Assembly: GCA_031426395.1 (NCBI GenBank) | Contig: JANPLG010000124.1 | Location: 1,851-65,850 of the forward strand | DNA from: Actinomycetes bacterium | GTDB lineage: Bacteria > Armatimonadota > SYMT01 | Direction of reading: 5' to 3' | DNA length: 64,000 nucleotides | In this document: positions 2,791 through 44,322 of the stretch, one piece after another | Layout: the number at the start of each line of letters is the position of its first letter | How positions within the stretch are numbered: position 1 is the first letter of the stretch | Notes under the pieces: model-generated | The model's input: the letters and a program-made list of their open reading frames with translations, nothing else | What the model was told of the DNA's origin: nothing | Databases searched by the model: none | Program-made: the position numbers and the translations under genes

Positions 2791-4530
2791 TTAGCTCTTC
2801 AGTTCCGCCTCTACCTGTTCCAGGAACTGCGTGATCGGCGTGGCACCGAGGTCGCCCTTGTCGCGGGAGCGGACGGAGACGGCTTCCGCCGCCGCTTCCT
2901 TGTCGCCCACCACGAGCATGTAGGGCACCTTCTGGAGCTGGGCGTCACGGATCTTTGCCTGCATCCGCTCTCCACGGGTATCGATCTCCACGCGCATGCC
3001 GGCGTCCGTGAGCCGCTGCTTCACGGTCTGGCAGTACTCGGCGTGCCGGTCCGCAATCGGGATGATCTTGGCCTGAACCGGCGCCAGCCAGAGCGGGAAG
3101 GCCCCGGCGAAGTGCTCGATCAGCACGCCGACGAACCGCTCCAGAGAACCGAATGGGGCGCGGTGGATCATCACGGGACGGTGCGGCTGGCCGTCCTCGC
3201 CGGTGTATTCCAGGCCGAAGCGCTCCGGCAGGACGTAGTCCACCTGCACCGTGCCAAGCTGCCACTCCCGCCCGATGGCGTCCTTCACCATGAAGTCGAG
3301 CTTGGGGCCGTAGATGGCGGCCTCGCCCTCAACCACTTCGTGTGGCATCTCCAACTGCTCGACCGCTTCCAGGATGGCCGCCTGGCTCTGCTCCCAGACT
3401 TCATCGCTGCCCACGTACTTCTCCGGCTTGGCCGGGTCCCGGAGGCCGACCCTCGCCCGGAACTCCAGCTTGAGCTTGCTGAAGACGAGCATGATCAGGT
3501 CGACGACGCCGTGGAACTCCTGGACCAACTGGTCCGGGCGGCAGAAGATGTGGCTATCGTCCTGGGTGAAGCCGCGCACGCGGGTCAGGCCGGCAAGCTC
3601 GCCGCTCTGCTCGTACCGATAGACGGTGCCGAACTCCGCGTAGCGCACCGGCAGATCCCGGTAGCTGCGCCGCTCGTTGGCGTAGATCTGGATGTGGAAC
3701 GGGCAGTTGACCGGCTTGAGGACAAATTCGGCCCCCTCGTCGTCATGCATGCTGGGGAAGAGGCCGTCCTTGTAAGCCTCCCAGTGCCCGGAGACCTCGA
3801 AGAGCTCCCGCTTGGTGAGGTGCGGCGTGATGACCGGCTGGTAGCCGCGCACCCGCTGCTGATCCCGCATGAACTCGGTGAGCGTCTCCCGCAGCACGGC
3901 GCCTTTGGGCAGCCAGAGCGGCAGACCCCCGCCGACCAGCGGGCTGATCATGAAGATGCCGAGTTCCCGGCCGAGGCGGCGGTGGTCGCGCTTGCGGGCT
4001 TCCTCCAGGCGGTGGAGGAACTCGTCCAGCTCAGCCTGGGTGAAAAAGGCGGTGCCGTAGATGCGCTGAAGCTGCGGGTTCTTCTCGTTGCCGCGCCAGT
4101 AGGCTCCGGCCACGTTGAGCAGCTTGAACGCGCCGATATGGCCCGTGCTCTCCGCGTGCGGACCGCGGCAGAGGTCGGTGAAGTCGCCGTTGGTGTAGAG
4201 CGTGATCCGCTCGTCGTCAGGAAACTCGCGAATGAGTTCCGACTTGTAGGGGTTCTCGCTGAACATGGTGAGGGCTTCGTCACGCGAGATCTCGCGGACG
4301 GAGAAGCTCTCATCCCGGGCCACACCCTTCGCCATCTCCGCTTCCAGGGCCTGGAGGTCTTCCAGGGTGAAGGGCGTGGGACGGTCGAAGTCGTAGTAGA
4401 AGCCTTCCTCGGTCGGCGGACCGATGGTCATCTTGGCTTCGGGGAAGAGGTGGGAGACCGCCTGGGCCAGCACGTGGGCGGCGCTGTGGCGGAGGCGGTA
4501 GAGGTCATCGACCTCTGGAGCACGTCGCAT
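2791..4530 (-). CDS. thrS: Threonine--tRNA ligase, short form lacking the N-terminal TGS domain
   Basis: HSAAHVLAQAV editing-domain motif near the N-terminus, class II catalytic core and anticodon-binding region. 579 aa, about 60 aa shorter than E. coli ThrRS at the N-terminus. Confidence 0.9.
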   Translation of the reverse strand: MRRAPEVDDLYRLRHSAAHVLAQAVSHLFPEAKMTIGPPTEEGFYYDFDRPTPFTLEDLQALEAEMAKGVARDESFSVREISRDEALTMFSENPYKSELIREFPDDERITLYTNGDFTDLCRGPHAESTGHIGAFKLLNVAGAYWRGNEKNPQLQRIYGTAFFTQAELDEFLHRLEEARKRDHRRLGRELGIFMISPLVGGGLPLWLPKGAVLRETLTEFMRDQQRVRGYQPVITPHLTKRELFEVSGHWEAYKDGLFPSMHDDEGAEFVLKPVNCPFHIQIYANERRSYRDLPVRYAEFGTVYRYEQSGELAGLTRVRGFTQDDSHIFCRPDQLVQEFHGVVDLIMLVFSKLKLEFRARVGLRDPAKPEKYVGSDEVWEQSQAAILEAVEQLEMPHEVVEGEAAIYGPKLDFMVKDAIGREWQLGTVQVDYVLPERFGLEYTGEDGQPHRPVMIHRAPFGSLERFVGVLIEHFAGAFPLWLAPVQAKIIPIADRHAEYCQTVKQRLTDAGMRVEIDTRGERMQAKIRDAQLQKVPYMLVVGDKEAAAEAVSVRSRDKGDLGATPITQFLEQVEAELKS

Positions 4531-4985
4531 CGGGGATTCCTCCGTCGTTCACCCGCATGACCGGTTACAGTTCCGGCGGCGGGAACGACGGCAGTCTACC
4601 AGACCCTCCTCCGCTGCAGGCCAATTTGCAGTTTTCAATTGTCAGTTTCCGACTGGCGCAGGGGTGTGATCCGAGATGGTTGCAGAGAGCTTCAGCCCTC
4701 GGTTGACAGAAATGCATGGTAGCTAGGGTTCATTGTTTTTAGGGGGGGGACTACACCACCACCGAGAGTAATTCAGAATGCAGAATTCAGAATGCAAGGG
4801 ATCGCACTCCGGGTGGCTGTTGGCGGGACGGATTCCAGCGTGCATGGCTGGGGTTAGGGTTTAGTCTTGGGCACAGTAGGATGATGGAGTTGGCTGCTTG
4901 GGCGGTCTGCATCTGCTTAGCGCGTCATCCCAGGGTTCTGTCTGCAAGTGTGGGGCGCTGTGAATCGAGGGTGGCGGCGCTGCAT

Positions 4986-5032
4986 GAAGAAGGGGAAGTC
5001 CGACGATGCGGACTCCCCCTCTTCTTTTTCCC
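4986..5032. terminator. Bidirectional hairpin terminator (A-tract / stem / T-tract) 3' of the giant secretin gene
   Basis: gaagaaggggaagtccg-acgatg-cggactccccctcttc followed by tttttccc on the plus strand and preceded by an A-rich run. Confidence 0.45.
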
Positions 5033-5048
5033 AAGCGATTTCCGACGC

Positions 5049-8000
5049 CTATTGAGCGAGGTGAAGCTTCTTCAGCAGCCCGTTGAGTGTCTCCCTTGCG
5101 GTGGGGCGGTCGCCGACGCGGAGGTATGCCGGCGGCTTGAACCCGAGTTCGGTGCGCTGGGGCACGTCCACGAGGAGGTCGACGATCTCCGAGACGGTGG
5201 GATAGATGGCCGTCTGGCCGAGGATGACGCTCTCCTGGATCAGGCCTCCCTTGGCTGCCTGCCGGGTGAAGTAACCGATGAGCGGGATGTCCTTCAGGAT
5301 GGGCAGGTTGCGGACGATCGGAACGCCGCCGGTGCGCTTCTCCGGAAGCCCCAACTGCGCGTTCACGCCGAAGCGGGAGACCTCGCGCACCTCCAGGTTG
5401 CTGACCTGCACCTCGGTGTTGACCGTGTGGCGGTCGACGCGCGGGATGGAGGGGTTCACCGTCCCATTCGGCTCCCGGACGTTCACTACGGCGGCGTAGT
5501 CGAACTTGAAGCGGAGAGCCTGGCCGGAGGGATCGAAGATGGGCGTCAGCTTGAAGGTGTTGCCACTGGTGAGGGCATAGACCTCACCCGGCGGCTCCTC
5601 CTTCTGTTCGTCCAGGAGGCTAAGTAGAGCCCCGATTCCCCCAAACAGCCCCAGCGAGGCACCACTGGCCCCCAGGGCACTCGCCGCTCCCGCCGCCGTC
5701 ATCCCGTTCTTGGCGGCATTGCTGCTCCGCTTGGGGGCGAAGAAGGAGTTGTTGACCGACTGGGCGATCTGCGCCAACTGCTGCGCCTGCTCCAGGAAGT
5801 CCTCGGGACCTTTGAGCGTCACATCTCCGCTGGCGTTGGGAGAGACGCGCGCCACCAGCCGGTTGGTGGCGAGGATGGAGGTCCGCTCAATCAGGCCGAA
5901 GTTGACCCGAGGCTTGGTCCCTCCTACCAGGCCCGCCAGCTTGTCCCCAATGCGTTCGCCTGTACTGGGCTTGTCATGGATCACGTCCTGGAGCGCCTTC
6001 AGCGCGGGAGAGACGAAGTAATGGTCAACGTCATCCTCGACAATGACCATGAGGCGCTTGACCATGTCGTCCGCCGCAGCAACGCGGGCGGTAGATTGCG
6101 TCAGGGAGTTCCGCTGCCCCTCCAGTGCCGCAATGGTCCAAGCCATCTGGTCTGCTGCCACAGGTTGCTTGAAGTTCATTTTGACGGCTTGCATTCCGAG
6201 GGCGCGATACGGCTGCGGCACATAGCATGCCCCGGCCTTTGCCTGATCATCCAGGTCCCGGAAGTCAGTGGGCGAGTCCACCAGGGACCGGGAGAGCCAT
6301 CCGAGGAGCGGCAGATACTGCTCACGCAACTGCCATACCAGGGGCGATCCCGGCTGGACTTGATCACCCGAGAGGCCCTGCGTGCGTTGGATCTGCCGCA
6401 GGATGCTTCTCACCTCCAGGCCGCAGGAGTGCCTCCCCTTTGCCTGGAGCGCCATGAGGACCTCCAGTTGGTTGGCGGTCATCTCGTCATCGTTGAGGTT
6501 TGACTCTCGCTTGTGGAGCGCACCGAATAAGGTTCTCGGTAGCGCTGGAAAGGTTGGGGATCCCGCTTGCTTGTTCGACGATGCATTCCCATTCGCCGCG
6601 CCAAGCAAAGAAACGGTGTCCTCTCCTGAAATCAGGACCCGGGCGACCGCGAGAGAATCGTGCAGGAATTGGTCGTAGCGTTCTCCTCGCCGCTTGGCAA
6701 GCTCTTGATCCCTGCCGTTCGAGTATTTGCCGGCGGCGGCATTCGCTTGGCGGCTCAGAGCGATGAGTTCCGTTGAAAAGTCCCGCAAGACCCGCAGCCG
6801 ACAGGATCTCCGGAGGAGGGAGGAGATGAACAGCGTCTGGCCGAGGGTGGTGGAGTTCGCGGGGTCAGGAATGGTCCAGCGGGTCACGGTTTCAAGGTCC
6901 AGTAGCTGAATTGCTAACTTCGACTTGTCGACTTCTTGCTTTTTGCGCTGCCTATAGACCTTTTCGAGCTTGTTGAGCCGGGACCCGAGGGCTGACGTGT
7001 CGCACACGCAATCAGGATCAATGCCCTTCGCGATCGAGTGCAGAATCCTCTGAAGTTCCTGCACGGACTCTTCACCCTTGCGAACCGCTGGCAGGACCGT
7101 ATCACCATAGAAATTGTCTAGCGTGTCCTTTTCTTTCGGGGGCGGGTCTCCGGGAACTAACTGCTTGAAACTGCGCTTCACCAATTTTCTAAGATTGTCT
7201 ACCAAAGTGGCCTTGTCTTGCTTGATGGCGAGCATCTCTGCCATTTCTTCTGCGAGCTTAGCCAAGGTCTTCAGTTCGCAGAGCGCGTCAGCCTTCCGCA
7301 ATTTCAGCGCCTGCCAGGTGAAGCCACCCGCGTCTTCGACATAGCACTTCTGAAGACCCTTCACGCGATCCATCCGGTGCGTGACTCGTCCCAGCGAAGC
7401 CTGAACTTCTCTAACCGCAGCTATCCCAAACTCCCCAACAAGGTTAAGCTCCTCAGCCAATCTATTGGATGGTCTAGGGTCGAGTCCTTGCTTCTTTCGA
7501 AGCGCCCTAAGCTCCATGAATCGTTCCACATAGCCCCGGAGCGCCTTCAAGTCAGCGGAAAGGCGAAGCGTCTGCGCCGCAGTGGAGTGCCACTCGGAGT
7601 AGGGGAGCTGAAGGCCCAGCCGTTCCCGTACCTCGCGGGGATAGGCCATGTAGCGACAGAGGCGCTGGTCCATATCCAGCGGCGTACCCTGGATGAGGCT
7701 CTTGAACCCAATGGCGACGGAATTCACCTCCTGGTTGACGGAGTTGCGCAGCACGTCCTGGATGCCGATGATGTTGGCGCGCAGGTAGCGCATCTCTTCA
7801 TTGATCAGGCGCACGCTGCCGTTCAGTTGGGCGGGGTCGCGGCCATTCAGTTGCAGGGTCCAGAGGGTGACCCGCGCCTGCGGCGCGGGACGGTCGAACC
7901 CGGCGACCACGTCCAGCGCGGTTTCCACGTCGGCGGGATTGCCCCGGAGGAAGAGCGTCTTGCTGTCTCCGTAGGCGAAGAACATGACCCGGCCCAGCGG

Positions 8001-10229
8001 GTCGTTGCTGCCGGCGCGGGCCGGGGCGAAGTAGATGGGCAGGTTGTCCGAGGCTTCCCCGAAGGCCTCCGCTTCTGCCCGCGCCTGGAGGACCAGTTGC
8101 TGGCGCAGCTCGAAGACGGCTTGCTGCGCTTGCCGGAGCTGGGGCATGGCACCGAGCGCCTCCGCCTCAGTGTTGTTCAGTTGCCGGTTGACCTCATCCC
8201 GCCGGGTCTGCGCGGAACGCATCTTCTCCTCGGCGCGGCCTACGGCGGCGCGTTGGTCGTCGGTGAGCGACTTGGCGAAAGCCGCATCAGCGGTTGCCGG
8301 CGGGACCGCGTTCTGGAGCGCCATGAGCTCGCCCTTGAGCTTCTCGACCTTCGCCGTCTTCTCATCGATGACGGGCTGGGGCATCATCGCCGCGATCGCA
8401 TCCGCCAACTCCTTCTCGGCGGCGGTGAGTTCCTGCTGCTTGACGGTTACGGCGTTGTCCGACTTCGCCTTGTTGAGGTCCGCCAGGGCCTGCTTCGATA
8501 CCAGGTCGCTGAGGATCTTGTTGGCGTCCGTTACCGCCTGCTGCTCGGCGGCGAGCTTCTTGTCCGCGACCTCGAGTTCGGTCTGGAGGATGATGACCTG
8601 CCGCTTCAGGTCGGCGACAGCTCCGTCCCTGGCGAACGCCTCCTGCTCCTTCTTCAGCAATTCAGACTGGAGCGTCCGGGCGCGGTCGACGAAGGCACGG
8701 CCCTCCGGATTGAGGATCGTCACCTCGTTGCGCCGCAGGGACTGAAGGAGGCGGGGCACGTTGGTGAAGTAGAAGAGGCGCACCTGCTCGTTCACAAACC
8801 CCTCGGCGTCTCCCGTGTAGGTCTCGTCCAGGCCAACGAGAGCGGCGGAGAGGATGTCGCGCCCCACGCGGGCTCCGACCACGCTCTCCCCGGCGGCCTT
8901 CATCGCGGCGTCGTTCACTTCGCGGAGCTGCGCCGCGAGGGTGGGCCAAGCGGTGTCGGCCTGATTGATCAGGGTGACCAGCCCCCGGCCCAGGGTCATG
9001 CGGGTCTCATCGGGGACGGGGAGGGCCCGGTCATCATCACCTTCCCGCGCCCTGGCAAGTCCCTCCCGGAGTGCCCGCGTGTACTTGAGCAGCTCGCCGG
9101 TCTCGACGTCGCAGGCGGTCCGGACCGCGTCATACAGCCCACGGAAACCTTCGATGCAGCGCTGGGTCTTCTGGCCATGCTCCCGCACTCCGGCGCAAAG
9201 CTTGTCATCCCGCTTCGCGCCGTGCATCTCCGTTGCCTCGACGTAGTCCGGCGGCTCGAGTCCCTCGACTAGCAGGCCTGACCCAGGCTCATCCAGCTTG
9301 TCCGACTGACGGATGGGCGCCAGGGCTTTCACCAGTGATCGGTTGAGGATCTCCGCGCGACCAAAGGCAACGAGTTGGCCAGCCAGCGCATCGGCGGCTG
9401 CCAGCCCCGTAGGCTTGCCGCTGGTCAGCTTGGGGAACTGGGTGGCATCAAGTTGGGAACCGAGACCGGAGGAGAGCTTGTTGCCATAGCCCGTGAACGC
9501 CTTGACCGCCTTGAAGAGCAGGCCCTTCTCCCCCTCCGTGCCGCGCAGTTTCTTCGCGTCCTCGATGCCTGCCTTGAGCTCGGTCAGTAGCGCCTGCGCC
9601 TCGTCAATGGGATCCTGCTTCTTCTTGAGAGCGGCCGCAGCATCCGACTTCGCCTTATCCGCAGCAGCAGCGGCGGCAGTGGCGGTATCGAGCGCCTTCT
9701 GCGCTTCGTCGATCTCGGCCTGTGGTGCCATCTTCTCTTTGAGCTGCTTCAGCTTCTCCTGCGCCGCCAGCAGCTCTTTCTTCTTGGTTTCCTGCGCCGT
9801 GGTCTTGTCCGCGAGGTCCTTGCGCAACTGCACGATCTCGGTGGAGGTGTCAGCCGCCTTGAGCGCTTCATCAAGGCACTTGGAATCGGTCTCGGCCTTC
9901 GGCTCTGTCAATGGCTTGAGCTTGGAATCAAGGCCACCGTTTCCGCCAATGGGGTGCGCCTTCCAGAGCTTGGCCCCCTCCGCGAGGCGAGCGATGCTGG
10001 TGCTGGAAAGCTCCGGGTCGGCGGGAAGCCCCAGCGCCGGCAGTAGCTTCTTCGCGTTCGCCAGCGGGGTTCTTGTCTCGCCGAGAAGCTTCTTCGCGTC
10101 GGTGACGGCTGCCGGGAGGTCCGTACAGGGCTTGTCAGCAGCCATGCCGCCAGTCACATAGGAGAGGGAGAGGAGACTGGTAACCAAGATGAACAGGGAG
10201 CAGAAGGCTCTTCGACTAGGGTGCCACAT
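5049..10229 (-). CDS. Giant (1726 aa) secreted protein with a Secretin_N-like module, extensive coiled coils and a C-terminal secretin pore domain
   Basis: N-terminal signal peptide (MWHPSRRAFCSLFILVTSLLSLSYVTGGMAA). Mid-protein block ...RVMFFAYGDSKTLFLRGNPADVETALDVVAGFDRPAPQARVTLWTLQLN... resembles Secretin_N ring modules. C-terminal ~250 aa (...FKLTPIFDPSG..., VDRHTVNTEVQVSNLE..., GGVPIVRNLPILKDIPLIGYFTRQ..., ESVILGQTAIYPTV) follows the secretin (GspD/PilQ/pIV) domain pattern, including the VPLLGDIPLLGxLF signature. Most of the remainder is heptad-like, K/E/A/Q-rich helix. Confidence 0.75.
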   Translation of the reverse strand: MWHPSRRAFCSLFILVTSLLSLSYVTGGMAADKPCTDLPAAVTDAKKLLGETRTPLANAKKLLPALGLPADPELSSTSIARLAEGAKLWKAHPIGGNGGLDSKLKPLTEPKAETDSKCLDEALKAADTSTEIVQLRKDLADKTTAQETKKKELLAAQEKLKQLKEKMAPQAEIDEAQKALDTATAAAAAADKAKSDAAAALKKKQDPIDEAQALLTELKAGIEDAKKLRGTEGEKGLLFKAVKAFTGYGNKLSSGLGSQLDATQFPKLTSGKPTGLAAADALAGQLVAFGRAEILNRSLVKALAPIRQSDKLDEPGSGLLVEGLEPPDYVEATEMHGAKRDDKLCAGVREHGQKTQRCIEGFRGLYDAVRTACDVETGELLKYTRALREGLARAREGDDDRALPVPDETRMTLGRGLVTLINQADTAWPTLAAQLREVNDAAMKAAGESVVGARVGRDILSAALVGLDETYTGDAEGFVNEQVRLFYFTNVPRLLQSLRRNEVTILNPEGRAFVDRARTLQSELLKKEQEAFARDGAVADLKRQVIILQTELEVADKKLAAEQQAVTDANKILSDLVSKQALADLNKAKSDNAVTVKQQELTAAEKELADAIAAMMPQPVIDEKTAKVEKLKGELMALQNAVPPATADAAFAKSLTDDQRAAVGRAEEKMRSAQTRRDEVNRQLNNTEAEALGAMPQLRQAQQAVFELRQQLVLQARAEAEAFGEASDNLPIYFAPARAGSNDPLGRVMFFAYGDSKTLFLRGNPADVETALDVVAGFDRPAPQARVTLWTLQLNGRDPAQLNGSVRLINEEMRYLRANIIGIQDVLRNSVNQEVNSVAIGFKSLIQGTPLDMDQRLCRYMAYPREVRERLGLQLPYSEWHSTAAQTLRLSADLKALRGYVERFMELRALRKKQGLDPRPSNRLAEELNLVGEFGIAAVREVQASLGRVTHRMDRVKGLQKCYVEDAGGFTWQALKLRKADALCELKTLAKLAEEMAEMLAIKQDKATLVDNLRKLVKRSFKQLVPGDPPPKEKDTLDNFYGDTVLPAVRKGEESVQELQRILHSIAKGIDPDCVCDTSALGSRLNKLEKVYRQRKKQEVDKSKLAIQLLDLETVTRWTIPDPANSTTLGQTLFISSLLRRSCRLRVLRDFSTELIALSRQANAAAGKYSNGRDQELAKRRGERYDQFLHDSLAVARVLISGEDTVSLLGAANGNASSNKQAGSPTFPALPRTLFGALHKRESNLNDDEMTANQLEVLMALQAKGRHSCGLEVRSILRQIQRTQGLSGDQVQPGSPLVWQLREQYLPLLGWLSRSLVDSPTDFRDLDDQAKAGACYVPQPYRALGMQAVKMNFKQPVAADQMAWTIAALEGQRNSLTQSTARVAAADDMVKRLMVIVEDDVDHYFVSPALKALQDVIHDKPSTGERIGDKLAGLVGGTKPRVNFGLIERTSILATNRLVARVSPNASGDVTLKGPEDFLEQAQQLAQIAQSVNNSFFAPKRSSNAAKNGMTAAGAASALGASGASLGLFGGIGALLSLLDEQKEEPPGEVYALTSGNTFKLTPIFDPSGQALRFKFDYAAVVNVREPNGTVNPSIPRVDRHTVNTEVQVSNLEVREVSRFGVNAQLGLPEKRTGGVPIVRNLPILKDIPLIGYFTRQAAKGGLIQESVILGQTAIYPTVSEIVDLLVDVPQRTELGFKPPAYLRVGDRPTARETLNGLLKKLHLAQ

Positions 10230-10609
10230 TCTATGGACCTCGATCTTCAGGTGCGACCAATCCGAGCGGTGCTAACAAGTCGCAAATCACTCGCGAGCAG
10301 CTTCTCCGGTATTGTTCTCCGTGCTTCAGTGCGTCTCCTGCCTAGGAGGGCGAGCAACCTTGGCCTCTCTTGAACGCAGGACGAGGGCGTGATCCGGCGG
10401 TCGCAGCCGAAAGGGGCAGCGGCGCGGGTGGGGCAGTGGAGCGCAGGGGAGTTCGTCACGTCGGCCGCCGCGCCGATGCAGGAGATCCGCGTCACCCCGG
10501 TGCAGTGGGACCTTCCCCGAAACCAGGAGCATCGCCGTCCGTGGATGCAGGGAGTGCTCTTGAACGGGTGGACGGATTCTAGACAGCCGAGGCGTGGCGG
10601 ATTCCCGAC

Positions 10610-10725
10610 AGTTTTCGACGTTCTCTGTCGAATGTGTCGAGAACCGGGCATGAACCCGGAAGTCGTGAACGGCCCCTCCGGATTCCGTCAGTTTCGACAG
10701 AGGCTCTGTCGAGAATCGTCAGGCA
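10610..10725. promoter_or_regulatory. Two copies of a TCGACAGAG-n-CTCTGTCGA palindrome in the divergent secretin/recF intergenic region
   Basis: gttttcgacgttctctgtcgaatgtgtcgag (10610-10645) and gtttcgacagaggctctgtcgagaatcgtc (10688-10720). The second is a perfect 19-bp palindrome. Both lie 260-370 bp upstream of recF. Confidence 0.4.
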
Positions 10726-10981
10726 CGCGTCCAGGAATCCACGGAGAGGCGATAGGGGTTATCGACATCCTGACAGCACTACGGAGTCTACTGAATAGAT
10801 ATATGACTCTGAGTCTTTCAGAGGTCTCATGTGCAAAAGGGAGATCGGGGCCGGGGAGCTGGAAGATCGATTTGGGGAAGGTTGGACCGGAAGGGCCTTC
10901 CGGGGGATGGGGCTTGGATAGAGTAAAGCCAGTCGCCTCCTGATCCCTGACTTCCAGCCTTGATCTGTTTCCCTGGCCTTT

Positions 10982-12139
10982 ATGCTTCTTCGCCATCTGA
11001 CCTTGCGGCATTACCGGAACTACGTGGAGCTTCGCCAGGAGTTCTCACCCAGCCTAAACGTGGTGGTGGGTCCCAACGCCCAGGGCAAGACGAACCTGCT
11101 GGAGTCGGTCTACCTGCTGGCTACCAGCAAGTCGATGAAGGGCAGCAAGGACGCGGACCTGATTGAGTGGGACACGCCGGCCGCGCTGGTTTCCGCGGAC
11201 GTGCTGCGGGAGAAGGCGAACGACATCGAGCTGGAAGTCTCCCTCTCTCGGACGGAGAAGAAGACGCTGGTGGTGAACACGGTCCATGTGCCTCGTGCCA
11301 TGGAGTTCATCGGGCAGCTCAAGGCGGTGGCCTTCAGCGTCAGCGACCTGGAGGTGGTGCGGGGCGAGCCGCTGCGCCGCCGCCGGTTCCTCGACCTGGA
11401 GGTCTCCCAGCTTAGCCCCAGCTACGTCCATACGCTGGCGTGCTACCGCAAGGTGGTGGAGCAGCGGAGCAAGCTCCTGAAGCAGGCGCGCGACCGCAGC
11501 ATGCGTCCGATCATCGAGGAGACGCTGGGGGTCTGGACCGACCAGATGATTGTCTATGGCAGCAAGCTGATGGACAGGCGGCGGCAGTTCCTGGAGAAGC
11601 TGGAGGCGTTCGCCCAGCCAATCCACTCCCTGATGACGGATGCCCAGGAGCGGCTCACGGTCTCCTACCATCCCAGCTTCCGGGCACCGGAGAACCCGGA
11701 GAAGGTGCCGGACGCCTATCGCGAGGCGCTCTCCCATGTGCGGGAAGAGGAGTTCCGCCGGCAGGTCTGCCTGGTGGGTCCCCACCGGGACGACGTGACC
11801 TTCCTGATCAATGGCCGGGACGCGCGCACCTACGGCAGCCAGGGCCAGCAGCGTACGGCAGCCCTGAGCGTGAAGCTGGCCGAGGTGGAGCTGATGCGGG
11901 ATCTCACGGGAGAAGCCCCGGTCTGCCTTCTGGACGATGTCTTCAGCGAGCTGGACAGCCGCCGCCGTGGCCACATCTTCGACGTGACCCTGGGCGCGTG
12001 CCAGACCTTCCTCTCCACCACGGATGTGGAACTCCTCCCGCTGGAGGTGCGGAAGCAGGCGACGCTCTTCCATGCGCGGCAGGGAAGCCTGAGGAGAGAG
12101 GGAGAGAGGGAGAGAGGGAGAGAGGGGGCGACGCGGTGA
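10982..12139 (+). CDS. recF: DNA replication and repair protein RecF, with a C-terminal simple-repeat-encoded tail
   Basis: MLLRHLTLRHYRNY start, Walker A GPNAQGKTNLLE, C-terminal LLDDVFSELD signature. The last ~20 codons (RREGEREREGATR) are encoded by a (GAGAGGGA)n array. Confidence 0.9.
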   Translation: MLLRHLTLRHYRNYVELRQEFSPSLNVVVGPNAQGKTNLLESVYLLATSKSMKGSKDADLIEWDTPAALVSADVLREKANDIELEVSLSRTEKKTLVVNTVHVPRAMEFIGQLKAVAFSVSDLEVVRGEPLRRRRFLDLEVSQLSPSYVHTLACYRKVVEQRSKLLKQARDRSMRPIIEETLGVWTDQMIVYGSKLMDRRRQFLEKLEAFAQPIHSLMTDAQERLTVSYHPSFRAPENPEKVPDAYREALSHVREEEFRRQVCLVGPHRDDVTFLINGRDARTYGSQGQQRTAALSVKLAEVELMRDLTGEAPVCLLDDVFSELDSRRRGHIFDVTLGACQTFLSTTDVELLPLEVRKQATLFHARQGSLRREGERERGREGATR

Positions 12140-15627: not shown

Positions 15628-16407
15628 TTGGCAACCTCCCCCACTGAACTGAGCGGAACCACCTTGCGGCCGATGTCGCGGCCCGCCCCACGGGCCAGCC
15701 TCCCGGCGGAGGCGCGGGCGGTGCTGGTCAAGGACCTCCGCTCCGAGGTCCGCACCCGCGCGGCCCTCGCTACCATCCTGCTCTTCGCGGTGGTCACCCT
15801 CATCACGGTCGCCTTCACCGTGCCAACCAGGGTCCCCGGCCTTGTGGAACGGGGCGCGGACACCATCAACCGCTCCTACGTCCTCTCCGCGCTGCTCTGG
15901 ATCATCCTCTTCTTCAGCGCCATGGCGGGCCTGCCGCGCACCTTCGTCAAGGAAGAGGAGATGCGCACTGCGCCCGCGCTGCGGCTGGCCGCCCGGCCAC
16001 TGGCGGTCTTCTGGGGCAAGCTGCTCTTTAACGCCCTGCTGGTGACTGCGGTCGCTGTGGTGGTTCTCCCCCTCTTCCTCATCCTGCTGACGCCGCGCGT
16101 GGAGAGCTGGCCCGCCTTCCTCGCCTACCTCCTGTTCGGCTCACTCGGCATGGCGGGCGGCGCGACCATCCTCGGGGCCATCGTGGCCCGGGCGGGCGGC
16201 AAGGCCTACCTGATGGTGCCGCTCGCCTTCCCCATCCTGCTGCCGCTGCTGGTGATGACCATCAACGGCACCGCCATCGCGCTCAACGGAAGCACCACAC
16301 ATCCGGTGGCGAATCCCGGCGACCAGCTCCTCCCGCTCGTGTCCTACCTGGTAGCGCTGGTCACCGTCTCCGTCCTGCTCTTCGACTACGTATGGCGGGA
16401 CACCTGA
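15628..16407 (+). CDS. ccmB: Heme exporter permease CcmB
   Basis: Six-TM ABC permease with CcmB-like sequence (LVKDLRSEVRTR...LLFAVVTLITVAF...). TTG start at 15628; an alternative ATG is at 15673. Confidence 0.75.
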   Translation: MATSPTELSGTTLRPMSRPAPRASLPAEARAVLVKDLRSEVRTRAALATILLFAVVTLITVAFTVPTRVPGLVERGADTINRSYVLSALLWIILFFSAMAGLPRTFVKEEEMRTAPALRLAARPLAVFWGKLLFNALLVTAVAVVVLPLFLILLTPRVESWPAFLAYLLFGSLGMAGGATILGAIVARAGGKAYLMVPLAFPILLPLLVMTINGTAIALNGSTTHPVANPGDQLLPLVSYLVALVTVSVLLFDYVWRDT

Positions 16408-16555
16408 TGGCCGGGTGCCCAACCTGGGGCGGCATTCAGGGCGTCTCACAAGGCGAGGGTGATCCGAACCACGGAGACCGGGGCCAGACCGACCGTTATA
16501 ATAGGGACGGACACGGACAGAGGGCCAAGGGCGGCCCAGGAGCAAGGGACGCGGG

Positions 16556-17398
16556 ATGCAGCAGGTGAACCGAACGGCACGACGCAGCGCGGGACCGATG
16601 GGCGTGGCGCTCTGGAAATGGGCGCTGCTGCCGCTCATCATGGGCGTCATCTGCATGGCCTACCTCTGGGCGGGCAACCTGCAGAACTTCATGTCGCCTG
16701 AGACGGCGCGGATCATCTTCTGGCACGTGCCGATGGCGATGGTCTCCCTGGTCTGGTTCGCGGCCTCCGCCTGGTACTCCGTCCGCTATCTGCGGCGGGG
16801 CCAGCCGTTCGATGACGACCGCGCCGCCATCGCCGCCGAGATCGGCCTGATGACCACGGTCCTGGCCACCCTGACGGGGGCGATCTTCTCCAAGATGCAG
16901 TGGGCGGGCGGCCTTAACAGCAAGTGGTACGAAGGCTACTGGCAATGGGACCCCAAGCAGACCGCCATCCTGGTGGTGATCCTCATCTTCGGCGCCTACT
17001 TCGGCCTGCGGATGTCGGTGGAGGACACGGAGCGGCGGGCGCGGCTCTCCGCAGTCTACTCCGTGCTGGGCGCGCTGACCGTCCCGCTGCTCTACTGGGT
17101 GCTGCCCCACCTGCCGATCTTCGCCAGCCTCCACCCCACGGACACCATCAAGCAGGGGATGGACACGCCCTACCGGGTCACCTTCTGGACCTCCACCCTG
17201 TTCTTCACCGGCATCACGCTCTGGGCTTACCAGCTCAAGCTGCGCGTGGCGGAACTGAGCCTCCGCCGGATGCTCAGTGGCGCGGCAACTGGAGCGGGCT
17301 CCGCGCCCACCGTGGCGGTGAGGCGGCCACGACCGGAAGTTGCCACTCACCGGGCGGCTGTCAAAGAGCAAGCCGCCATTCAGCAAGGAGAACGGTAA
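16556..17398 (+). CDS. ccmC: Heme exporter protein CcmC
   Basis: WWD-domain motif KWYEGYWQWDPKQTAILVV and conserved His-containing TM helices. The start could instead be MGVALWKW at 16598. Confidence 0.85.
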   Translation: MQQVNRTARRSAGPMGVALWKWALLPLIMGVICMAYLWAGNLQNFMSPETARIIFWHVPMAMVSLVWFAASAWYSVRYLRRGQPFDDDRAAIAAEIGLMTTVLATLTGAIFSKMQWAGGLNSKWYEGYWQWDPKQTAILVVILIFGAYFGLRMSVEDTERRARLSAVYSVLGALTVPLLYWVLPHLPIFASLHPTDTIKQGMDTPYRVTFWTSTLFFTGITLWAYQLKLRVAELSLRRMLSGAATGAGSAPTVAVRRPRPEVATHRAAVKEQAAIQQGER

Positions 17399-17399
17399 G

Positions 17400-17513
17400 A
17401 TGGAGTTGTACGTGGTGCTGGCAACCAGCGTGCTGGTGTGGAGTGGGCTCTTCTTCTACATGCTCAGCCTCGATAGGAAGCTGACGCGGCTCGAAGAGCG
17501 GGACCGGCAGTAA
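17400..17513 (+). CDS. ccmD: CcmD-like small membrane protein (37 aa)
   Basis: Not in the ORF track because it is under 60 aa. MELYVVLATSVLVWSGLFFYMLSLDRKLTRLEERDRQ, a single TM plus basic tail. AAGGAG RBS, and the start overlaps the ccmC stop region. Confidence 0.65.
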   Translation: MELYVVLATSVLVWSGLFFYMLSLDRKLTRLEERDRQ

Positions 17514-17515
17514 TA

Positions 17516-17647
17516 CCAAGTTCCTAATCTTACTCTTAATCCTAATCCTACTCCCAAGCCTCTCGAACCGTTCCCGCCTACCGACAAGCGGAACGAGCTT
17601 CCAGGGCTTCTTGGAGTAGGATTAAGAGTAAGAGTAGGATTAGGATC
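17516..17647. repeat. MITE-like hairpin element of the AAGTTCCTAATC...(TAGGAT/TAAGAG)n family, copy A
   Basis: Arms built of cctaatc/ttactc hexamers in inverted arrangement around a conserved core ctcccaagcc.ctcg...cccgcctaccg.caag.gga.c.agcttccagg.cttct. AT-rich relative to the genome. Confidence 0.8.
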
Positions 17648-17830
17648 CGATGGCGGTCCGCCATCGGAACTCAACACACCAGCTGCCAACTCCAGGCACG
17701 GGCCAGACCCACTCATCAGAGACGAGGGCGGAACGCAGCCCGGCTGGAAACCGTCTGAGTAATGAGCGCGAAGTTCGCGCAGGGTGCGGGCCGCAGGCGT
17801 CAGAGGCTCACCCGGATAAGGGAAGTGAAG

Positions 17831-18292
17831 ATGAAGGCGAAGAACTTACTTTTAGGCGGCGGTCTGGTGCTGGGCTGCGCCGTGGTCGGTGCCGCTTCCT
17901 TCCGGGGCTCCGAGGTCAACTCCATCGAGTTCGACCAGTTGGCGCGCGTGGGCACCAAGCAGGTGATCCAGGTCTACGGCAAGCTGGACGCGCAGACCAT
18001 TAAGCCGATCAAGGGCAGCCCCAACCACGTGGAGTTCAAGCTCCTGGACGAGAAGACCCACAAGCCTCTCCAGGTGGTGTACGACAACGTTCAGGTTCCA
18101 CTGCCGGCAAACTTCCCGGCCGCCAGCCACGCCAAGGCCACCGGCACCTACGACACTGCCACCAACGTCTTCACGGCCAACTCCGTCCTGACCAAGTGCC
18201 CCTCCAAGTACGAGTACGATACCCTGCCGATTGACCAGAAGCAGGCCGTGGACAAGTTCCAGAAGTCGACCGGTCTGGCCGCAGCCAAGTAA
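17831..18292 (+). CDS. ccmE: CcmE-type heme chaperone, CXXXY variant
   Basis: N-terminal TM, OB-fold core. The position normally holding the heme-binding His (H-x3-Y) reads LTKCPSKYEYD, i.e. C-x3-Y. Start at MKAKNLL with RBS gggaag; the ORF track gives 17762. Confidence 0.7.
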   Translation: MKAKNLLLGGGLVLGCAVVGAASFRGSEVNSIEFDQLARVGTKQVIQVYGKLDAQTIKPIKGSPNHVEFKLLDEKTHKPLQVVYDNVQVPLPANFPAASHAKATGTYDTATNVFTANSVLTKCPSKYEYDTLPIDQKQAVDKFQKSTGLAAAK

Positions 18293-18296
18293 TGTT

Positions 18297-18426
18297 AAGT
18301 TCCTAATCTTAATCCTACTCCTAATCTTACTCCCAAGCCCTTCGTGGCGATCCCGCCTACCGGCAAGTGGATCAAGCTTCCAGGACTTCTCTGAGTAAGA
18401 TTAGGAGTAAGAGCAGGATTAGGAAT
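18297..18426. repeat. MITE-like hairpin element of the AAGTTCCTAATC...(TAGGAT/TAAGAG)n family, copy B
   Basis: Begins 5 nt after the ccmE stop. Same core and arm architecture as 17516-17647. Confidence 0.8.
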
Positions 18427-18580
18427 TCGAACCCCACGAGGCTCGTTGTGACCGGACACCCCTGCGCTTCCGCAGGCCGGGCATGGCGGGCCTTTCCCAT
18501 AGATTTGATCGCCGCGTGCGCACTCTTCCCTTTCCCGGGTAGAGCACCGATAGAGCAGCACCCTGGCGAGGAGCGAATGA

Positions 18581-21415
18581 ATGCCGGAACCGAACATCTC
18601 CGATGCCGTCCACAAGTCGGGACTGCTGGGTATCGCCGTTACGTTCGGCAACCTGGCGGTCTGGATCGGCCTCTTCTTCACCGTCCTCGCGGTGATCTTC
18701 TTCTGGCGCGCGATGCTGCGCACCATGCGCCTTCATCCTGAGGGGTCTGGCGCGGCGGGGGCCGGCACGGCAGGTTCCGTGTCTGCGCTGGCCGCCAACG
18801 GGGGCGGCAAGAACGGTGACGGCAAGCAGGCCAACGGAAAGAACGGGAACGGCAACGGGAAACACGCCCGGCCGGCCGCTCACTCCAGTTCGGCGGCCAG
18901 TAAAGCGGCCAGTACGGCGACCAGTTCGTCCCTTTCGGAGGCGGAGCAGAAGACGGAGGTCGTCTTCCACTGGGCCAAGCAGTTCTGGATCGTCTCCTGC
19001 TCCATGATGTTCCTGGCGGCGCTCTGCCTCTGGACCCTGCTCCTCACCCAGCAGTACAACATCAGTTACGTGCTGAAGAACACCAACCCGGAGATCCCCA
19101 TCTTCTACCGGTTCGCCGCGTTCTGGGCCAACCAGGAGGGGACGTTCATCCTCTGGGGGATGTACAACGCGGTCATCGCCGGCTTCCTCTTCTGGCGCGC
19201 CAAGCAGGACGTGCGCTGGGTGATGCCGTTCTTCGCGCTGATCAACGTCTCGCTCTTCACGCTGCTCTTCTTCATGAACCCGTTCTGGTTCCCGGCAGCG
19301 GAAGAAGTGCGCAAGGGGCTCACCGCAGCCGGCCTACCGCCGGACAAGCTGGCCTGGCTGCCTAACACCTGGTCGCAGCACCTCGCGTACTACTTCGGGT
19401 GGGGCACCTACATCCGGCCCAACCTGCTGCAGCCCCGGGGACTGAACGAGAGCCTGCAGAACTTCTGGTTCGTGATCCACCCGCCCACCCTCTTCGTCGG
19501 GTACAGCACCATGATGGTGCCGGGCATCTTCGCCCTCGGGGCCCTGATGCGCCGGGACTACGACCAGTGGATCAACCGCGCCGCCTCGTGGCTGATGTTC
19601 TCCTGGACCGTCCTGGCCTTCGGAGTCTTCCTCGGCGCCTACTGGGCCTACGAGACCCTGGGCTGGGGTGGCTACTGGAGTTGGGACCCCGTCGAGAACT
19701 CCTCGCTCATCCCGTGGCTGGTCGGCACCACGCTGCTCCACGGCTTGCTGGCGCAGCGCAACCGGGGCAACTTCAAGCACGTCAACCTCTTCCTGGGGAT
19801 GCTGGCGCTCAACTCCGTCTGGATCGCCTCCTTCCTGGTGCGGAGCGGCGTCCTCTCGGAGGTCTCCGTCCACTCCTTCGCCACGCCGGACAAGGCGGTC
19901 TTCTTCACGCTGCTGGTTGGCATGATCGCGATGGCGGCCCTGAGTCTCGGGATCTGGCTCTGGCGCTTCAAAGACATCCAGAGCGAGATCGCTTATGAGC
20001 ATGTCTGGGAGCGCCACTTCGGCTTCTTTCTCGGCCTGATCACGCTCTCCGCCATCTCCGTGGTGGTCACCTTCGGCGTCACCATGCCGATCTGGAAGCC
20101 GTGGATCAGCGGCGGGCAGAAGTCGACGCTCGACCACCTCTTCTACAACAAGGCGACGCTGCCCATCGTCTACGTGACGGTGCTCCTGATGGCGCTGACC
20201 CCGCTGATGCCGTGGCGTCACGCGCGTGAGCAGGCGCGGCCACCGAAGCTGTTCACCAAGGTGGCGCTGGCGCTGGCCGGGATCATCTCCGCCTACTTCA
20301 TGGTCGGCGCGATCATGGCGTGGCAGAACGGCTTCCGCTCTTTCAACGACACGCCGCCCTCCTTCGGGAACGACCACGCGTACATCGCCTTCGCGCTGCT
20401 GCTGGGGCTGTCGCTGATCACCAACTTCTCCGTGCTCATTCGCGCCTTCAAGGGCGGCATCTTGAACACGGGGGCGTGGTGGGCGCACATCGGGTTCATC
20501 CTGATGCTGGCCGGCGTGATGATGAGCACCCGCCTCAAGACGGTCCAGAACATCACGGAGTTGCCGCTCAACAGCGCGGTGAAGCTGTATGGCCGGGACT
20601 GGACCTTCAAGGGTGAGCGTCCCTCCTCTGGGGATGGCGACCGGCCACGGATGCTGGTCCAGATGCGGGAGCCGGGTGGCCACGTCCGCGATTTCGATCC
20701 CAAGGTCTTCATCAACACCCAGGGCGAGAAGCCGACCGCCATGGCGTGGCCGCAGATGGAGAGCCAGTGGTTCGGCGGGGCCTGGGGAGACCTCTACCTG
20801 GAGCCCTCCAGCATGGTCTCCTACAAGCCGCTCGGCTCGGTGGAGAAGCTGAAGAAGGACTCCCCGCCGCAGACCTTCCTGGTCCAGCACCCCAGTTCGC
20901 AGAAGGAAGACACCATCACGGTGCAGTTCCTTTCGCTGGACACTTCGGAACTGCAAAAGGCGGTGCAGGCCGGCGCCCGCGGCCCGATGCTGGCCTACGC
21001 CGACCTTACGGTCACCGTCAACGGCGAGCAGCGCTCCCTCCGCGCCCCGATGGAGCTGCAGTTCGGTGGCCCGGAAGGACCGAAGACGGACGCACGCCCG
21101 ATTGTGCTGGAAGGGCCCAACGCGGAGATCACCTACACTCTCTTCTGCCAGACCAACATGACGCCCGGAAACCTGGTTGCCAGCGTGGTGGTGGCGGTGC
21201 CGGTGGCCAACTTCCAGGTGATGCACATTCCCGGCATTCAGGTGCTCTGGTTCGGGGTGTACATCATGGTCGGAGGTGGGATCATCGCCTTCTTGCGGCG
21301 GCGCCAGCTCGCGAACAAGATCGTCCCCGCCTTCAAGGGTCCCCGCCGCACCGACGAGCCGGAACCGACGGAGAAGGCTCCGCTTCCGGAGCGGGAGCTG
21401 GTCGGCGCGGAGTAG
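18581..21415 (+). CDS. ccmF: Cytochrome c-type biogenesis protein CcmF (heme lyase subunit), 944 aa with N- and C-terminal extensions
   Basis: WWD motif GWGGYWSWDPVENSSLIPWL, conserved His-containing TM helices and about 15 TM segments. N-terminal ~150 aa include an extra TM and a G/N/K low-complexity linker. Confidence 0.85.
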   Translation: MPEPNISDAVHKSGLLGIAVTFGNLAVWIGLFFTVLAVIFFWRAMLRTMRLHPEGSGAAGAGTAGSVSALAANGGGKNGDGKQANGKNGNGNGKHARPAAHSSSAASKAASTATSSSLSEAEQKTEVVFHWAKQFWIVSCSMMFLAALCLWTLLLTQQYNISYVLKNTNPEIPIFYRFAAFWANQEGTFILWGMYNAVIAGFLFWRAKQDVRWVMPFFALINVSLFTLLFFMNPFWFPAAEEVRKGLTAAGLPPDKLAWLPNTWSQHLAYYFGWGTYIRPNLLQPRGLNESLQNFWFVIHPPTLFVGYSTMMVPGIFALGALMRRDYDQWINRAASWLMFSWTVLAFGVFLGAYWAYETLGWGGYWSWDPVENSSLIPWLVGTTLLHGLLAQRNRGNFKHVNLFLGMLALNSVWIASFLVRSGVLSEVSVHSFATPDKAVFFTLLVGMIAMAALSLGIWLWRFKDIQSEIAYEHVWERHFGFFLGLITLSAISVVVTFGVTMPIWKPWISGGQKSTLDHLFYNKATLPIVYVTVLLMALTPLMPWRHAREQARPPKLFTKVALALAGIISAYFMVGAIMAWQNGFRSFNDTPPSFGNDHAYIAFALLLGLSLITNFSVLIRAFKGGILNTGAWWAHIGFILMLAGVMMSTRLKTVQNITELPLNSAVKLYGRDWTFKGERPSSGDGDRPRMLVQMREPGGHVRDFDPKVFINTQGEKPTAMAWPQMESQWFGGAWGDLYLEPSSMVSYKPLGSVEKLKKDSPPQTFLVQHPSSQKEDTITVQFLSLDTSELQKAVQAGARGPMLAYADLTVTVNGEQRSLRAPMELQFGGPEGPKTDARPIVLEGPNAEITYTLFCQTNMTPGNLVASVVVAVPVANFQVMHIPGIQVLWFGVYIMVGGGIIAFLRRRQLANKIVPAFKGPRRTDEPEPTEKAPLPERELVGAE

Positions 21416-24739: not shown

Positions 24740-25942
24740 TTACTCCTTGATGACACGAGGGGCGATGTTCGCGCCCATCTCGTACAGGGTGCGGTCCCGG
24801 TCCCGGGCGCGGGCCCGGACGAGGTAGTCGTCGTTGCCGATCTTCTGGTAGCTCTCGATCACGAGACCGGAGAAGGCGTCCAGCGTGGCCACCCGCATCG
24901 GCTCGTCCATCCGCAGCTCCTCCAGCGTGACCGGATTGACGAACGCCGGCCGCTCCTCGCTGCCGAACCCTTCCAGGGCGGTGCGGATGTTGGTGAACGC
25001 CTTGAGAGCCGCCGCGCGCCGGGCCGCGCTGGTGGCGTTGAAGCTCCAGCCGCCGGGCGCCAGCCCGATGAGCTGCATGACTGGATCGAGCGCGCCGTTG
25101 ATCCCGTACTCCAGTTGGGTCAGCAGGTCCGGGGGCCGCTGGAAGCGGTCGACCGCCTGCACCTGGGCCCCGATCCGCGTCCGGGCGGCGGGCGCCAGCG
25201 GATTCACGCCGCTCACCTGATAGCCGGTCGCGGCGCTCATCTGGCCCACGGTCGCCTGCGTCTCGGCGGCGGCGGTGCGGAACCGGACCTGGCCCTCCAC
25301 CACGGCGAGGTAGGTCTGTCGGCGCTGCGGGTCGTACATCACGCGGAAGGCGGTTCCCCGCACCGCCGCCACGGCGGTGGGTGTGCAGACGGTCCCCTGG
25401 GATCCCGCCGCCACCCCGAAGTAGCGGCTGAAGCGGGCGACCACCGCCCCCGAGCGGACCATGAACGACCGGTCCCGGCGTCCGCCCCGCGCAAAGTCGA
25501 GGAGCCGCACCTCGAAGGTGGTGTTCGGCTCAAGCTGCACGGCGCTGCCGTCCGGAAAGACGAGGGTGGCCGTGCTGCCGGCGGCAGTGATGAGGACATC
25601 CTTATTCCCCAGCGTCTCACCGGGCCGCGGCGCGATCGGGCCGGCGGTCCCTCCCCGCCGCAGGCTGACGGTGCCGCTCACCAACTCCAGGCGGGCGGAC
25701 ATCTCGCCGCCCTCGCGCCGGATTCCGTCCGCGATGAGCGCCACCAGTGCGACCGCGAGCACCACCAGAACCGCCTTCACCCAGCCTGGCGCGCCACGGA
25801 GCCAGCCGGTCCAGCGCTCCCATTTCTTGTCAGAGCGCCGCCGCTTCAGTTTCTTCTGGTGGACCTGCTCCTGTTCCCGGAGCGCGTCCAGCAGCACCTG
25901 GGCGCTGTCCTGCGACGACGTAGGCTTCTTACCTCGGGCCAT
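24740..25942 (-). CDS. FecR-domain membrane protein
   Basis: TLVFPDGSAVQLEPNTTFEV FecR-type beta-sandwich signature and one TM. Start chosen at MARGKKP, 14-nt overlap with the upstream cyclase stop; the ORF track extends to 26065. Confidence 0.65.
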   Translation of the reverse strand: MARGKKPTSSQDSAQVLLDALREQEQVHQKKLKRRRSDKKWERWTGWLRGAPGWVKAVLVVLAVALVALIADGIRREGGEMSARLELVSGTVSLRRGGTAGPIAPRPGETLGNKDVLITAAGSTATLVFPDGSAVQLEPNTTFEVRLLDFARGGRRDRSFMVRSGAVVARFSRYFGVAAGSQGTVCTPTAVAAVRGTAFRVMYDPQRRQTYLAVVEGQVRFRTAAAETQATVGQMSAATGYQVSGVNPLAPAARTRIGAQVQAVDRFQRPPDLLTQLEYGINGALDPVMQLIGLAPGGWSFNATSAARRAAALKAFTNIRTALEGFGSEERPAFVNPVTLEELRMDEPMRVATLDAFSGLVIESYQKIGNDDYLVRARARDRDRTLYEMGANIAPRVIKE

Positions 25943-44179: not shown

Positions 44180-44322
44180 CTAGGGTTGGAAGCTGAAGTT
44201 GAAGGCGTGAACGACTCTGTTCCCCTTCGATGCCGCGTTGGCTGGGATTTTCGCTCGGACGCGCAAGGGTGGCTATCTCTGTCCGGGGGACAATTCGAAA
44301 TCCGCAATCCGCAATTGACCTG

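Follow-up and report, generated by a model that had tools for sequence, protein, structure and literature searches.

The 64,000-nucleotide stretch of DNA analysed here (the window; contig JANPLG010000124.1 of an Armatimonadota genome assembly) carries on its reverse strand a gene of 1726 codons whose product is a secretin by its fold and by the junction between its N3 domain and its barrel core, yet falls below the curated thresholds for that family and lacks the beta-lip, the N-terminal N0 domain and the linkage to a secretion or pilus system that go with known secretins. Homology to secretins is well supported, and a probability of about 0.6 is given to the reading in which the product is a secreted envelope protein that belongs, though very divergent, to the secretin superfamily and would form a ring-shaped, gated assembly with a built-in stalk. 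To our knowledge, secretins are the standard large outer-membrane pores and every secretin studied belongs to a multi-protein machine; the protein described here probably represents a novel type of channel or anchor in the envelope.

The assignment is carried in the first place by the N-domain and its passage into the core. A preliminary description of this DNA, made from the letters alone, had proposed a Secretin_N-like module, and such a module is present: PF03958 (Secretin_N) is the one Pfam family found in the whole protein, at amino acids (aa) 715–784, with an E-value of 1.4e-5 and 25.7 bits, just below the gathering score of 28.2. The same model matches each of five family members to which it was applied (21.8–31.8 bits, one of them above the gathering score). 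A profile of 43 family sequences covering aa 715–840 was compared with the sequences in the PDB and matched 8co1, the PilQ-type secretin of Deinococcus radiodurans (E 1.8e-6), MxiD (6rwk, 6.4e-5) and InvG (5tcq, 1.3e-3). These alignments span N3 and continue into the first barrel strand, where the consensus 'PapqArltLwtlel' lies over InvG 'rhvELSLWIVDL'. The N3 domain thus stands directly before the first barrel strand, as in other secretins, and the wide separation of N-domain and pore domain that had been proposed is not upheld.

The second line of evidence is the fold of the C-terminal part. A template-free AlphaFold2 model of aa 700–1726 (monomer, 71 sequences, predicted TM-score 0.75, mean predicted local distance difference test (pLDDT) 73) shows a predicted secretin-type beta-sandwich protomer. 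The alignments used for this model and for that of the N-terminal part comprised 71 and 69 proteins from homology searches. When the model was compared with the PDB using Foldseek, the top 32 matches were all secretins (E 1e-5 to ~2e-2), including InvG (E 1e-5), MxiD, GspD, PilQ, PulD, EpsD, BfpB and DR_0774, with pIV at rank 34 (E 0.26); the root-mean-square deviations of these matches are large and their TM-scores low. The version of the secretin signature noted previously, LPILKDIPLIGYFT, does occur at aa 1642–1655, within a longer segment, GGVPIVRNLPILKDIPLIGYF (aa 1634–1654), that agrees with the loop pattern VP.L..IP.LG.LF, and the Pro-Leu-Ile-Gly core of the signature is invariant or nearly so across the family. 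PF00263 (Secretin) is the only Pfam family that recurs on the C-domains (11 of 14 members, best E 5.7e-5), and it was seen again, with longer coverage, in further family members.

The gene and the segments that bear on its assignment are given below; residue numbering is that of the window protein throughout, and the boundaries of helices and strands are taken from the AlphaFold2 models.

5049–10229, reverse strand: whole gene, a single uninterrupted open reading frame (ORF) of 1726 aa plus stop codon.
7896–8036, reverse strand: second half of the N3-like (Secretin_N) domain (aa 732–778), strand-strand-strand-helix; carries the 25.7-bit PF03958 match.
7842–7880, reverse strand: first secretin-core strand (aa 784–796, ARVTLWTLQL), aligned with InvG (ELSLWIVDL) and MxiD; a strand in model 1.
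5160–6023, reverse strand: rest of the secretin-like beta core (aa 1403–1690), long strands modelled at aa 1442–1676.
5610–5747, reverse strand: Gly/Ala/Leu-rich hydrophobic loop (aa 1495–1540), disordered in the model at ~1495–1530; family members conserve its hydrophobic segment.
5262–5330, reverse strand: secretin signature GGVPIVRNLPILKDIPLIGYFTR (aa 1634–1656), equivalent to positions 132–152 of the PF00263 profile.

An N3-type ring domain that leads straight into the first core strand, with the rest of the core, signature loop included, at the C-terminal end, is accordingly the arrangement that these data strongly support. The claim of a C-terminal secretin domain thereby stands at the level of structure (Foldseek) and of the family, and fails as a significant match to the Secretin hidden Markov model (HMM), PF00263 remaining below threshold. 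From the order of the conserved blocks, compared with that of pIV, the loop at aa 1495–1540 is presumed to be Gate 1, the central gate.

In size the protein far exceeds known secretins, as had been noted, and its extra length is attributed to two insertions, a coiled-coil hairpin within the N3-like domain and a helical module at the position of the beta-lip. These and the remaining segments are as follows.

10137–10229, reverse strand: signal-peptide-like N-terminus (aa 1–31), hydrophobic, with a helix modelled at aa 5–26; most homologues start alike.
9522–10136, reverse strand: poorly conserved region (aa 32–236), with K/E/Q/A-rich helices at aa 128–229.
8814–9521, reverse strand: helical bundle (aa 237–472), pLDDT >90 except for a disordered loop at aa 312–338.
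8736–8795, reverse strand: strand 479–484 and helix 491–498 (aa 479–498, VRLFYF..VPRLLQSL), in the conserved block aa 451–500 just before the hairpin.
8046–8708, reverse strand: antiparallel coiled-coil hairpin (aa 508–728), two long helices in the AlphaFold2 model, pLDDT 82–95.
6024–7835, reverse strand: helical module at the beta-lip position (aa 799–1402), ~600 aa.
6930–7532, reverse strand: lineage-specific sub-insert with CVCD (aa 900–1100), aligned in ~9% of homologues, pLDDT mostly <60.
5052–5159, reverse strand: non-conserved tail (aa 1691–1726), occupancy 0.22 in homologues, helix at aa 1711–1724.

The hairpin consists of helices at aa 508–613 (106 residues, ~16 nm) and 618–728 (111 residues) and resembles fragments of SMC arms (TM ~0.5, target-normalised). 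It separates the second half of the N3-like domain from the strand and helix at aa 479–498, which are a plausible, though not proven, first half of the same domain, split in the model by the inserted hairpin. When the hairpin was deleted in silico, four of five proteins gained slightly in Secretin_N score and in three of them the coverage reached further toward the start of the profile; the spacing across the insertion ranges from 185 to 331 aa among 56 full-length family members. By composition, the K/E/Q/A-rich stretches are confined to aa 100–230 and 500–720, both upstream of the Secretin_N match. The ~800 aa of coiled coil formerly placed between the N module and the pore have no counterpart in this anatomy, in which the hairpin precedes Secretin_N.

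The ~600 aa that follow the N-domain have ordinary composition and many shorter helices. In the model the helices start two residues past the first barrel strand, and aa 799–1435 are all-helical, so that the module appears to occupy the site of the beta-lip; in the same 56 full-length proteins the segment at this position measures 280–826 aa (median 437). The module ends at a helix, HYFVSPALKALQDV, followed by a strand, VNFGLIERTSILATNRLVARV, which we take to be the equivalents of the post-lip helix and strand of InvG and pIV. The small Cys cluster CVCD (aa 1074–1076), once singled out as a feature, lies in the poorly modelled sub-insert and is not conserved.

Only two 19-aa stretches are strongly hydrophobic, the N-terminus and the Gly/Ala/Leu-rich segment at ~aa 1518–1540. 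Hydrophobic segments conserved in the family are short (aa 1124–1140, 1383–1397 and 1522–1542) and none resembles a classical membrane-spanning helix. In the model of the N-terminal part, aa 27–127 have pLDDT <50 (disordered) and aa 128–229 values of ~60 (low-confidence helices). A structure search of this model against the PDB gave no significant match, the only similarities being to coiled-coil analogues; a weak, non-significant likeness to a Tc-toxin shell was set aside.

These proteins constitute a large unnamed family of soil bacteria with no curated model for the C-domain, and the database names encountered were all 'hypothetical protein'. An exhaustive search with the C-domain profile among 1.84 billion cluster representatives (50% identity) retrieved 643 at E <= 1e-3, 434 of them at E <= 1e-30; intact members are mostly 1200–2270 aa long, and the architecture and giant size are kept across the 643 clusters in several diderm phyla. 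The same profile matched the gene in the window at E 2e-115 and found no other family member there. A search with the C-terminal 361 aa gave 39 metagenomic proteins (38–59% identity), none with a Pfam assignment. The full-length search returned only the protein itself and a 1740-aa protein of Frigoriglobus tundricola, which shares the N- and C-domains at ~27% identity, a sparse result that probably arose because the short-word selection of candidates was crowded by coiled-coil words. Exact-sequence look-ups of P0001 and P0002 found nothing on record, the C-domain had no match in phage and plasmid collections, and a literature search of incomplete coverage yielded no description of such proteins.

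When one genome per species was scanned with the C-domain alignment, 53 loci were identified, with reading frames containing the domain typically of 1200–2280 aa and products that mostly begin with a signal peptide. Armatimonadota loci include some from metagenome-assembled genomes (MAGs) assigned to Capsulimonas, Chthonomonas and Fimbriimonas and, in MAG 30dZY2.bin.9, that of the closest relative (73% C-domain identity); others belong to Acidobacteriota (Pyrinomonadaceae, Acidobacteriaceae), a complete genome of Abditibacteriota (IAD-21) and one Planctomycetales MAG. The family thus occurs mainly in Acidobacteriota and Armatimonadota, and in Abditibacteriota and Planctomycetota as well. Two loci (L049 and L018) come from MAGs that bear the names Heliomicrobium (a Firmicute) and Dormibacterota, unexpected hosts that may reflect binning errors or a wider range. 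The order of blocks is identical in homologues from more than 50 genomes of several phyla, which is more than chance, and the closest relative, P0095 (2037 aa), is collinear with aa 79–965 and 1104–1703 of the window protein.

Some members depart from this pattern in other respects. C-terminal extensions reach ~480 aa in relatives vs the 36-aa tail of the window protein; in three Armatimonadota loci (L003:10901-11923, L008:10300-11838 and L007:9900-10802) they measure 300–500 aa and have no Pfam match, and that of L008 may consist of repeated beta-rich units. A Pyrinomonadaceae member has a C-terminal STN/N0 domain (L024:10400-11188, forward strand; PF07660, 29.4 bits, above the gathering score), a domain normally N-terminal in secretins. 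On a 210-kb contig from a long-read metagenome (L001:7597-11821) the family gene was called as pieces of 167, 607 and 606 aa; these are probably due to frameshift errors, as a nearby alanine racemase is split likewise, the opposite of a fusion artefact.

The genes that accompany the family were examined within 10-kb flanks at ~50 related loci of several phyla. No pil, gsp, tad or type III secretion genes were found in these flanks, and all-against-all clustering of their ORFs gave no partner common to several phyla; none of the neighbours of the window gene recurs at any related locus. Spot checks at four other loci showed beta-propeller proteins, Mfd and proteins without Pfam match as neighbours. 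The only recurrent neighbours found are restricted to Acidobacteriota and comprise a cysteine-containing protein of ~87 aa encoded directly downstream on the same strand (21 loci, e.g., L013:10796-11059, forward strand), a secreted protein of ~217 aa that often comes next (9 loci; L013:11110-11757) and a membrane protein of ~165 aa sometimes encoded upstream of the giant gene (6 loci; L013:6470-7009). All three lack a Pfam match and are absent from the window; a role as partners, cargo or assembly factors is possible.

In the window the gene lies between thrS (2791–4530, reverse strand) and recF (10982–12139, forward strand), with a polysaccharide deacetylase beyond thrS. In agreement with what had been noted for this neighbourhood, a Pfam examination of the 28 larger ORFs of the window detected no family of pilus, type II, type III or Tad systems (11 of the 28 had no Pfam match at all). 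The term 'orphan' given to the gene consequently describes its surroundings well, here and at the ~50 loci, and not a family of 643 clusters. Unusually long non-coding stretches surround the gene, at 4531–5048 (~520 bp, before thrS) and 10230–10981 (~750 bp, shared with the divergent recF); Rfam reported nothing in either, no consensus sigma-70 promoter was seen in them and their short ORFs look spurious. The small upstream ORFs 10247–10651 and 10688–11011 were rejected as spurious by composition, being without homologues or Pfam matches.

The other large ORFs of the window include PurK and acetyl-CoA synthetase, together with several groups described here for completeness. Cytochrome c maturation genes (CcmB-like, CcmC-like and a 944-aa CcmF-like protein) occupy 15628–21415 on the forward strand. 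On the reverse strand, 24740–27908 encodes two products from overlapping ORFs, a CHASE2 adenylate/guanylate cyclase (659 aa) and a FecR-domain protein (441 aa), which may work together in signalling; 38282–40090 encodes a 602-aa protein with weak Ig-like matches (I-set, Ig_3, Big_2); and 42647–47346 encodes a DUF1501 protein (510 aa) adjoining a PSCyt1/PSCyt2/PSD1 protein (1007 aa).

Compared with canonical secretins (GspD/PulD, InvG/MxiD, PilQ, RcpA, BfpB, pIV), the window protein has in common the passage from N3 at once to the first barrel strand and a C-terminal beta core with a VP..IP.IG..F-type loop. It differs in being 2–4 times larger, in a sequence too divergent for PF00263, in the absence of an N-terminal N0 domain and of linked secretion or pilus genes, in the ~220-aa coiled-coil hairpin placed by the model inside the N3-like domain and in the 280–826 aa of helices that replace a beta-lip of 36–80 aa. 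The N3 domain of InvG has an extended loop that presumably occupies a site equivalent to that of the hairpin, after the first helix and before the second strand of the fold; that loop is short, whereas the hairpin measures ~16 nm. The best sequence-level match of the N-domain profile is the Deinococcus/Thermus PilQ-type secretin (8co1). Secretins of this type reach far into a wide periplasm by stacked extra N-domain rings and keep a normal lip. In pIV, N3 comprises residues 108–172, the secretin domain begins at residue 175 and the beta-lip (199–234), which is the extracellular part of the barrel, comes straight after the first outer strand (PMC8563730). The lip measures ~36 residues in phage secretins, 51–60 in those of type II and ~80 where a cap gate is present (PMC8563730). 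Vibrio-type GspD has its extra ~80 residues, the cap gate, at this same site (PMC8563730), whereas the window protein has ~600 aa that are all-helical rather than a small beta cap.

On this basis, the subunits would form a ring of 12–15 like those of other secretins and build a double-walled, gated barrel located in the outer membrane or beneath it. The ~16 nm hairpin and the N-terminal helical region would project into the periplasm as a built-in stalk, standing in for the extra N-domains or the partner proteins of ordinary secretins. The helical module that replaces the beta-lip might constitute a crown close to the outer membrane or an altered region of membrane contact, and the ring may act as a stand-alone or loosely coupled conduit for macromolecules. 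The built-in periplasm-spanning stalk suggested beforehand survives here in altered form, made of the hairpin and the N-terminal helices instead of the anatomy first imagined. A more specific version, offered tentatively and with considerable doubt, is that the family is a branch of the superfamily without a dedicated inner-membrane machine, in which the helical module crosses the outer membrane as helices or forms a surface crown, the hairpin positions the ring and the 87- and ~217-aa proteins of Acidobacteriota are cargo or assembly factors.

A number of observations weigh against this reading. No secretin model of Pfam or NCBIfam reaches threshold: the whole protein has no match to PF00263, the C-terminal 349 aa alone give E 0.011 and 15.7–16 bits, short of the gathering score (27.5), with a match confined to the 21 residues of the signature loop, and NCBIfam returned only weak SMC coiled-coil noise. 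The C-domain profile found no secretin among PDB sequences even at E 10, hhalign against the single E. coli GspD aligned only the signature motif (residues 560–593, 12% probability) and phmmer with GspD retrieved nothing in the window or in related loci. Pfam shows no STN/N0 domain in the window protein, and its N-terminal model is all-helical. The short beta-lip of 36–80 aa, which is the outer-membrane end of known secretin barrels, is absent, so membrane insertion cannot be assumed. In addition, the AlphaFold2 model is that of a monomer, the pairing of the split N3 halves and the direction of both insertions are predictions, and neither partner genes nor a candidate substrate are known. The lack of a significant Secretin HMM match on the C-terminal region would in form refute the assignment; it is not taken to do so because the fold-level evidence is strong.

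A structural role is the alternative that best withstands the evidence, and it seems unlikely: the protein would be an envelope tether or spacer that grips the outer membrane through a secretin-derived ring and extends, by its coiled coil and N-terminal helices, to the cell wall or the inner membrane. The length of the antiparallel coiled coil, the conserved helical bundle, the location of the gene among housekeeping genes and the absence of ATPase, pilin or platform genes nearby at the loci examined are all consistent with such a role. A functional analogy is provided by connectors of the SlpA/OmpM type, which carry a long coiled coil on an outer-membrane beta structure, the Deinococcus SlpA connector being a coiled-coil stalk on an outer-membrane barrel (PMC9388160). 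These connectors, however, have an unrelated porin-type barrel and an SLH anchor, whereas Pfam finds no SLH, OmpA-like, LysM or AMIN cell-wall-binding domain in the window protein. Its coiled coil, moreover, folds back to the N3 domain as a hairpin, unlike a linker ending in an anchor, and the conserved gate-like and signature loops fit a retained gated channel more easily.

The genes for secretins do not always lie with those of their systems, and this protein might be an ordinary outer-membrane secretin that serves a conventional system (type IV pilus, type II secretion or Tad) whose genes are located elsewhere in the genome. This is decidedly improbable: the likeness of N3 and core to PilQ, InvG and GspD and the STN/N0 domain of one family member agree with it, but the same lack of system genes holds within 10 kb at ~50 loci, with no neighbour shared across phyla, the window protein has no N0 domain at the N-terminus, and the two insertions it carries are without counterpart in the secretins of known systems.

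It is very hard to maintain that the likeness to secretins is spurious, a product of a chance motif and of biased structure prediction. The sub-threshold scores of all sequence models on the C-domain and the poor superpositions in Foldseek are what such an explanation would predict; against it, the N-domain profile finds secretins by sequence alone, no family other than PF00263 recurs among the members and the order of the conserved blocks, as read by us from the sequences, matches the canonical one. That a frameshift or misassembly joined a normal secretin to an upstream gene, a risk raised in the preliminary description, has no point in its favour and is scarcely credible given the uninterrupted ORFs of 1200–2280 aa with the same architecture in more than 40 independent genomes across phyla, the collinear closest relative and a base composition without obvious break along the gene.

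If the divergent secretin proposed here does form a pore, secretins would prove more varied than now known in their architecture and in the modes by which they contact the outer membrane. Such a protein could also be the sign of an unrecognised device for export, uptake or envelope spacing in poorly studied phyla. As carriers include MAGs of Capsulimonas, Chthonomonas and Fimbriimonas as well as Frigoriglobus tundricola, the function of the family may be approached by experiment where cultured strains have the gene.

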